A stretch of DNA of 4,103 bases from a virus (taxonomy: Duplodnaviria; Heunggongvirae; Uroviricota; Caudoviricetes): the IMG/VR virus record IMGVR_UViG_2671180846_000030; one strand, 5' to 3'. The position numbers were made by a program, and so were the translations under genes. The notes beneath the pieces were generated by a model. That model saw only the letters and a list, made by a program, of their open reading frames with translations, ran no database searches and had not been told where the DNA came from. Position 1 is the stretch's first letter; each line of letters starts with the position of its first letter. Positions 2,275 to 2,332 of the stretch are shown here, one piece after another.

Positions 2275-2300
2275 GCCCGAACCCACTCGGGCTTTTTTTT
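2275..2300 (+). terminator. Intrinsic-terminator-like hairpin with 8-T run, plus-polar
   Basis: GCCCG (2275-2279) / CGGGC (2288-2292) 5-bp GC stem, 8-nt loop, then TTTTTTTT (2293-2300). Confidence 0.5.
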
Positions 2301-2306
2301 GCATGT

Positions 2307-2332
2307 AAAAAGGCTCCTGCGATGAGGAGCCT
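2307..2332 (-). terminator. Intrinsic-terminator-like hairpin, minus-polar; first terminator downstream of stxB
   Basis: AGGCTCCT (2311-2318) / AGGAGCCT (2325-2332) perfect 8-bp stem, 6-nt loop. On the minus strand it is followed by UUUU(U) (complement of the A-run at 2307-2311). Confidence 0.5.

Follow-up and report, generated by a model that had tools for sequence, protein, structure and literature searches.

A convergent pair of small RNA genes, of EcOnc03 and STnc100 type, in the stx1B-nanS-p spacer of an Stx1a-type phage

The stretch of phage DNA analysed here (the window, 4,103 nucleotides) carries stx1A (2872-3819) and stx1B (2593-2862, annotated stxB1 in BP-4795) and, on the same minus strand, nanS-p or yjhS (207..2069), an open reading frame for a sialate O-acetylesterase-like protein. 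Its sequence matches that of a BP-4795/YYZ-2008-type Stx1a phage, with 100% identity to BP-4795 over 2120-4103 and 99.7% over 1-2069. The start codon of nanS-p falls in a run of 50 Ns (2070-2119) which stands in for 101 nt of BP-4795, so that length is not preserved; in BP-4795 these 101 nt hold the yjhS start codon and the ribosome-binding site GGGAGGAATAATG. According to the open reading frames of the window, a spacer of about 500 nt separates stx1B, the upstream neighbour of the elements described below, from nanS-p, their downstream neighbour. This spacer contains a dyad of two convergent, independently terminated small RNA (sRNA) genes, an element and a layout that are already known from published work and whose RNAs both have Rfam families. 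All the RNA evidence cited here (expression, Hfq dependence, primary 5' ends and sizes) comes from Sakai prophage copies that are identical or homologous to those of the window.

Two further RNA elements lie outside the spacer. Upstream of stx1A, in the StxS/tR' region, positions 4045-4103 of the minus strand hold the 3' part of the short PR' transcript StxS1 (EcOnc15), cut by the window end. This transcript terminates at the tR' hairpin GCCAGCC...GGCTGGC (4053-4075; -19.7 kcal/mol, z = -3.05, all hairpin z-scores being against dinucleotide shuffles) followed by U6 (4047-4052), and its sequence agrees with EcOnc15 CLASH reads. On the plus strand, an sRNA-like unit at 130-207 has a strong terminator, whose 10-bp stem leads into U7 (-21.2 kcal/mol, z = -5.4) and stops exactly at the nanS-p stop codon, which creates a second convergent arrangement. 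Its Rfam match to Esr41 is weak (28 bits against a cut-off of 102). By position alone, between the esterase and holin genes, this unit corresponds to PasA of YYZ-2008, which was placed between these two genes (Zhu, Shabalina and Storz, bioRxiv 2026 preprint). A tRNA search of the window gave 0 tRNAs.

The back-to-back convergent terminators that the earlier note had proposed for the spacer are genuine. On the plus strand, both the consensus scan and folding place an intrinsic terminator exactly where it had been described, at 2275..2300, with a 6-bp stem GCCCGA/TCGGGC enclosing a 6-nt loop (2275-2292) and a T8 tail (2293-2300; TTTTTTTT after the hairpin in the consensus scan). Folded as RNA, this hairpin reaches -11.1 kcal/mol (z = -3.5) and is equalled by 1 of 200 shuffles. 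On the minus strand, the second terminator (2306..2332) is also at the place claimed for it and consists of the 8-bp stem AGGCTCCT/AGGAGCCT with a 6-nt loop (2332-2311), followed by UUUUU (2310-2306); it folds at -13.5 kcal/mol (z = -3.65), a value likewise equalled by 1 of 200 shuffles. The gap of 6 nt reported between the end of the plus-strand T-run (2300) and the start given for the minus-strand element (2307) was also recovered. Seven terminator-like sites were counted in the 4.1-kb window against 3.2 +/- 1.7 in shuffled sequences, 3 of them within 140 bp. Since both facing hairpins are located inside significant Rfam matches (E = 3.7e-09 for AgvB and 5.5e-45 for STnc100), they are far beyond chance. 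We also considered a single bidirectional intrinsic terminator and rejected it, the two structures being separate hairpins, each with a U tract on its own strand only: read on the minus strand, the plus hairpin runs into AACAGCAUGAG, and read on the plus strand, the minus hairpin runs into GGAUAUAU, neither of which is a U tract.

Comparison of homologues treats the two hairpins differently. The plus stem is invariant in 36 copies representing 16 distinct contexts and the loop bases alone vary, so that the poor conservation named in the earlier note as a reason to abandon this hairpin was not seen. Its sole comparative support is this conservation, no covariation being found in the stem among the 16 contexts. 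The minus hairpin, in contrast, covaries, with U-A to C-G exchanges (8 vs 8 contexts) and G-C to U-A exchanges (3 contexts); a C-G to U-G wobble occurs in 2 contexts, and the U tract is kept by every variant.

The minus hairpin lies at the 3' end of an STnc100-family sRNA encoded on the stx/late-operon strand (2301..2514, Rfam RF02076). The match scores 190.7 bits against a cut-off of 47 (E = 5.5e-45) and covers the model from 1 to 206 of 206, at 2514-2301. With this full-length match and an intrinsic terminator bearing compensatory changes, the RNA belongs to the STnc100 family, and the minus hairpin is predicted from these features to terminate an Hfq-binding sRNA of that family of at least 206 nt. 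The earlier note had explained this hairpin by its position after stxB. It is indeed the first canonical terminator past stx1B, 261 nt beyond the stop codon, but it is not a plain one, being the 3' end of an STnc100-type sRNA.

Facing it, the 60 nt from 2241 to 2300 on the plus strand hold an anti-sRNA gene of EcOnc03 type, assigned to the AgvB/AsxR group of prophage anti-sRNAs by Rfam and by its published sequence. The gene is composed of a 5' variable region (~2241-2260), the conserved core GUAUCUCAUGC (2261-2271) and the terminator (2275-2300). The EcOnc03 sequence given by Tree et al. 2014 (PMC4104026, Fig. S4) is identical to window positions 2246-2296, exactly over 51 nt. Furthermore, the 3' part that defines the group (~42 nt, comprising the core, the terminator GCCCGAACCYAYUCGGGC and a U tract) is found exactly at 2261-2300, and this segment aligns with 15 other distinct contexts. 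The Rfam AgvB model (RF02702) scores 56.6 bits at 2240-2299 (+) for a cut-off of 56, a margin of 0.6 bits, and the AsxR model (RF02703) stays below threshold on this RNA with 46.8 bits for a cut-off of 63; the missing score is located in the variable 5' region, where paralogues are expected to diverge.

Neither of these two family names fits the plus-strand RNA. AsxR was discarded on the differing 5' region and on the missed cut-off (46.8 vs 63). AgvB proper was discarded on the presence of GAUAAAAAUGACAAUGCAAG, without the CACAACA GcvB-target mimic, at the place where AgvB copies carry AACAACACAACAAU. Because the CACAACA mimic that defines AgvB function is absent, the RNA should not be named AgvB, whatever an Rfam-based annotation says; a pipeline relying on Rfam would nonetheless call it so despite the absent GcvB-mimic seed.

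The identity with EcOnc03 gives access to what is published on the Sakai copies. The most abundant unannotated Hfq-bound RNAs of Sakai form a group of 51-60-nt prophage sRNAs, in which the 3' ~42 nt are conserved and the 5' 14-18 nt are variable (PMC4104026). EcOnc03 of prophage Sp9 was detected as species of 56, ~54 and 51 nt, which lose stability when Hfq is missing (Table S2, PMC4104026); its 5' ends are heterogeneous and carry a triphosphate, and primary ends are reported for EcOnc01-03 (PMC4104026). In the data of Waters et al. (PMC5286369), CLASH reads of the identical Sp9 copy start with GATAAAAATGAC, which corresponds to G2241 of the window, some EcOnc03 reads extend through the U8 tract, and the RNase E-CLASH tables list 35 times the coordinate of a 5' end located at GAUAAAAAUGAC. 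A motif scan of the 5' region of the plus-strand RNA returned ARN4m1 (AAAAAUGACAAU) and ARN5m2, that is, A-R-N triplets, four or five in a row, of which one or two positions are mismatched, and A-R-N motifs have been tied to the distal face of Hfq (Tree et al. 2014, PMC4104026). The sequence thus has the features of a short transcript, with its own promoter, a length of 51-60 nt and A-R-N motifs in the 5' region, the ends and sizes being those of the Sakai copy. Judged by its sequence, the plus hairpin would be the terminator of a small RNA of ~60 nt (2241-2300) identical to EcOnc03, and we infer that EcOnc03 is probably expressed in the phage of the window as well. One of the two possibilities raised in the earlier note, a short plus-strand RNA ending near 2300, is thereby borne out by the Rfam match, the exact identity with EcOnc03 and the Sakai reads.

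The start of this RNA is preceded by a putative sigma-70 promoter (2205..2234, +), with a -10 box TAAAAT at 2229-2234, a G at -14 and a weak -35 box (TTGCGC, 2205-2210, 3/6 matches, 18-nt spacer) that lies inside a second minus-strand hairpin, named t2. The -10 box precedes the mapped 5' end by 6-7 nt. It is supported by the invariance of CCTGGTTAAAAT in 16/16 contexts, covering the AgvB, AsxR and EcOnc03 classes, at a fixed distance from the CGAT start. A consensus promoter scan of the plus strand upstream of the sRNA, in the window and in the BP-4795 equivalent including its 101 nt, returned none, because the -35 box is weak. In the promoter prediction suggested in the earlier note, the consensus scan was negative, and the promoter can be recognised by its invariant -10 box alone.

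The t2 element, absent from the earlier note, is a terminator-like hairpin at 2183..2216 on the minus strand, with a 10-bp stem (2216-2193) followed by UUUCGUAUUU (-18.3 kcal/mol, z = -4.2). Located past the antisense of the anti-sRNA, this hairpin overlaps the -35 region of the anti-sRNA and is kept in all contexts. Its imperfect positions are G.U pairs on the minus strand and C.A or A.C oppositions on the plus strand and, because they wobble-pair in the former, the structure most likely works in minus-strand RNA. One stretch of DNA may thus serve both strands, as t2 and as the promoter of the anti-sRNA. If that promoter had an UP element, it would fall in the A-rich flank of t2 (2183-2194). 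Between t2 and the nanS-p start, another hairpin (2137-2181, either strand) has a perfect stem of 12 bp (-27.2 kcal/mol, z = -5.2). The base of this stem, GGGCUG...CAGCCC, is retained in Sp9, in Sp15 and in the contexts from Stx2 phages, with a variable interior, and its Sp15 counterpart lies inside the plus-strand RNA EcOnc42, with 28 intramolecular hybrid reads in the CLASH data. Rfam matches to Leu_leader at 2134-2220 and 2189-2301 are below threshold and were taken as hairpin artefacts.

These upstream elements bear on the other possibility of the earlier note, transcription arriving on the plus strand from the nanS-p side. In that event, a longer antisense transcript of ~200-270 nt, resembling EcOnc42, EcOnc08 or EcOnc21, would start near the 5' end of nanS-p and EcOnc03 would be its 3' end. 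Such transcription is real in the sister phage Sp15, the Stx1 phage of Sakai, because the plus-strand RNA at the same position there is EcOnc42, whose CLASH reads span the large upstream hairpin with 28 intramolecular hybrids. The window retains the homologous large hairpin (2137-2181) as well as the t2 sequence, and t2, without a U tract on the plus strand, would not stop a long transcript. Against this, the published species of the identical EcOnc03 are of 51-56 nt only, with triphosphate 5' ends (PMC4104026), and the 35 occurrences of a 5' end coordinate corresponding to window 2241 (CLASH table of PMC5286369) point to the short form. Moreover, promoter prediction on the BP-4795 equivalent, with the 101 nt behind the N-run included, gave nothing sigma-70-like, and the group-specific -10 box is invariant. 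With its own conserved -10 box and published species of 51-56 nt, the RNA of the window lends no support to transcription from the nanS-p side here; we regard the long transcript as improbable, and a minor longer plus-strand species in the phage of the window as a minor possibility.

A very improbable explanation is that the hairpins are nothing but terminators insulating the toxin operon, in tandem or bidirectional, with no functional plus-strand RNA. The tandem minus-strand terminators at 2332-2306 and 2216-2183 would indeed fence in transcripts from the stx1 promoter. Nevertheless, neither hairpin is bidirectional, each having its U tract on its own strand only, in Sakai the plus-strand RNA ranks with the most abundant unannotated sRNAs bound by Hfq (PMC4104026), and conservation extends beyond the hairpin to the whole 60-nt unit and its promoter.

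We consider it extremely improbable that the spacer instead encodes a small protein, ORF42 of BP-4795 (78 aa, 2215-2451, minus strand). The annotations of BP-4795 and YYZ-2008 place a hypothetical protein here, and the ORF matches phrog_35554 with E = 5e-59. However, it has no Pfam match, overlapping ORFs in three frames and on two strands also match PHROGs of unknown function, indels of 1-2 nt occur inside it among relatives, the length of the stop-free stretch at this spot varies between 30 and 106 aa over the contexts of the family, and the ORF extends across two RNAs, one on each strand, that Rfam supports. A protein-coding spacer was rejected on the lack of a Pfam match, the multi-frame PHROG matches, the indels and the varying open stretch. 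The PHROG-matching ORFs over the dyad are 2215-2451 (-), 2228-2404 (-), 2339-2548 (+) and 2371-2532 (+), and the families concerned are phrog_35554, 23494 and 24488. Since the PHROG matches come from ORFs that overlap one another in several frames and on either strand, these families are probably spurious ORF calls on conserved non-coding DNA.

The two sRNA genes of the dyad meet at 2300/2301 without overlap, so that the mature RNAs are not mutually complementary. Pairs of convergent sRNAs were described in Sp3, 4, 5, 9, 10, 11, 15 and 17 (Tree et al. 2014, PMC4104026), where they sit between the "moron" CDS past the late promoter PR' and the next conserved ORF (PMC4104026); in a review, sRNA dyads are said to "bookend" stxAB. 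The dyad of the window has the corresponding location, between stx1B and nanS-p, with the anti-sRNA facing the STnc100-type sRNA. The suggestion of the earlier note that this spacer could house phage sRNAs near stx is in line with AsxR/EcOnc27 of the Stx2a phage and with the identical EcOnc03 found here.

Across viral contigs, 34 copies of the anti-sRNA, taken together with those of the window and of Sp9, sort by their 5' region into three discrete classes (AgvB, AsxR and EcOnc03-type); the loose pattern scan that yielded them produced mostly chance matches, from which group copies were filtered out afterwards. In every context long enough to align, an STnc100-type terminator faces the anti-sRNA at a distance of 6-9 nt. 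Within the phage collection, the window-type dyad core recurs with an identity of 99% or higher in 66 records, among them BP-4795, YYZ-2008 and all 47 of those named Stx1a-converting. EcOnc03 accompanies stx1 in most sequenced Stx1a phages. Among the records listed, none has an RNA annotation at the dyad and several have a hypothetical protein there; the immediate use of the present assignment is for annotation, as the dyad RNAs are unmarked in these records and in several are overlaid by that hypothetical protein. A species-level genome scan saw no spread of the anti-sRNA group beyond Escherichia, with 1 Escherichia match, 1 contig filed under Xanthomonas pisi and 1 chance match. The contig in question, NZ_JPLE01000080.1 (888 nt, Xanthomonas pisi DSM 18956), carries an AsxR-type dyad with Stx2-phage-like flanks and is most likely E. 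coli phage contamination of the Xanthomonas pisi assembly.

Altogether, the best explanation for the facing hairpins is a convergent dyad of EcOnc03 and an STnc100-type sRNA in the stx1B-nanS-p spacer, to which we assign a probability of roughly 0.9. In the working proposed for it, the weak plus-strand promoter (-10 box at 2229-2234) would start an Hfq-dependent RNA of ~60 nt at G2241, which would stop at the hairpin and U8 of 2275-2300. EcOnc03 is a paralogue of AgvB and AsxR that has its 3' two-thirds, comprising core and terminator, in common with them and its specificity in the differing 5' 14-20 nt. Its anti-sRNA mechanism is extrapolated from two paralogues (AgvB acting on GcvB and AsxR acting on FnrS), from which we infer a probable sponge-type action. 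On the opposite strand, the STnc100-type sRNA (2514-2301) would end at its hairpin and U5, arising either from a start of its own or from stx1-promoter transcripts. Pstx1 is Fur-regulated and lysis-independent and late transcription requires the Q antiterminator (PMC7547250). From this known control it would follow that the terminators restrict Pstx1 transcripts to the toxin genes and that the Q-modified polymerase reads through: in the lysogen, the first terminator and t2 would prevent transcripts of the stx1 promoter from entering nanS-p and the lysis genes, and Q-modified late transcription would pass both minus-strand terminators.

Concerning the partners of EcOnc03, the only searchable paper that names this RNA is Tree et al. 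2014 (PMC4104026), and no sRNA partner was seen in the parts of the CLASH tables covered here. These tables record a hybrid of EcOnc03 with the coding region of ompC (7 reads, both replicates), hybrids at the eptB start site for AgvB1 (4 reads), AsxR (5 reads) and EcOnc03 (4 reads), and a GO enrichment for cation transport and iron homeostasis among EcOnc3 partners. The core GUAUCUCAUGC (2261-2271, +) is a perfect 11-nt complement of the Sakai eptB start-codon region GCAUGAGAUAC. We estimate that ~0.4-2 such 11-mer matches are expected by chance over all translation starts, and this complementarity could be chance. The duplex of the whole RNA with the eptB start scores -31.8 vs -24.7 +/- 4.3 for shuffles, 4 of 100 of which are as good, and pairing of the U tract dominates it. 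A literature search for a link between eptB and the AgvB/AsxR/EcOnc03 sRNAs found no paper. When the 5' variable region was searched against the late-strand RNA of the window, the best target reached -12.8 kcal/mol vs -13.3 +/- 1.9 for shuffled seeds, and none stands out.

We also put forward, as a doubtful proposal, that one or the other of two further roles applies. In the first, the core GUAUCUCAUGC may be a second seed through which the RNA directly represses eptB, with EcOnc03 also contacting ompC and iron/cation-transport mRNAs. In the second, late transcription rendered terminator-resistant by Q may pass both minus-strand terminators and produce an RNA fully antisense to the anti-sRNA, perhaps together with promoter occlusion; if this were true, prophage induction would switch the anti-sRNA off and control of the host sRNAs would be returned at lysis.

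The dyad of the window is best compared with four Sakai loci. One is EcOnc03/EcOnc28 of Sp9, in which the anti-sRNA is identical to that of the window from the 5' end (CGAUAAAAAUGAC...) through the U8, with the same -10 box and the same facing STnc100-type terminator. Over window positions 2176-2391 the Sp9 locus is 96% identical, and Rfam recovers both families there, arranged as in the window. The two loci diverge in the 5' half of the STnc100-type RNA and, whereas the Sp9 dyad follows the tRNA genes ileZ and argO in a non-toxin prophage, that of the window comes directly after stx1AB. EcOnc28 belongs to the same STnc100 family as the minus-strand RNA of the window, as does EcOnc27 (sRNA103) of the Stx2a phage, and PasD is related to the STnc100-type sRNA.

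The AsxR (EcOnc02)/EcOnc27 dyad of the Stx2a phage Sp5/933W has the same position between toxin genes and nanS-p and the same convergent layout. AsxR is encoded 282 bp 3' of stx2AB, in antisense, and antagonises the sRNA FnrS (PMC4104026). It has the conserved 3' part and the promoter in common with the window RNA, and both partners belong to the STnc100 family. The two RNAs differ in the 5' variable region, which is UUAUUAAAACG in AsxR, where it pairs with the FnrS terminator loop, and AAAAAUGACAAUGCA in the window RNA. AgvB (EcOnc01a/b of Sp10/Sp17), a sponge that antagonises the sRNA GcvB (EcOnc01, PMC4104026), likewise has the promoter, core, terminator and dyad context in common with the RNA of the window.

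The case of EcOnc42, in the Sakai Stx1 phage Sp15, is one of like position and unlike sequence. As the window RNA does, EcOnc42 lies in the stx1B-nanS-p spacer on the strand opposite the toxin genes and ends at a plus-polar hairpin with U7, opposite an STnc100-type terminator. However, with ~271 nt (Tree table, PMC4104026) it is longer than the window RNA, the Sp15 sequence is unrelated to the window over 1940-2358, and the Sp15 locus has no AgvB or AsxR Rfam match, the STnc100 family being present. BP-4795/YYZ-2008-type Stx1a phages thus share the cassette of Sakai, with StxS 5' of the toxin genes and an sRNA dyad 3' of them.
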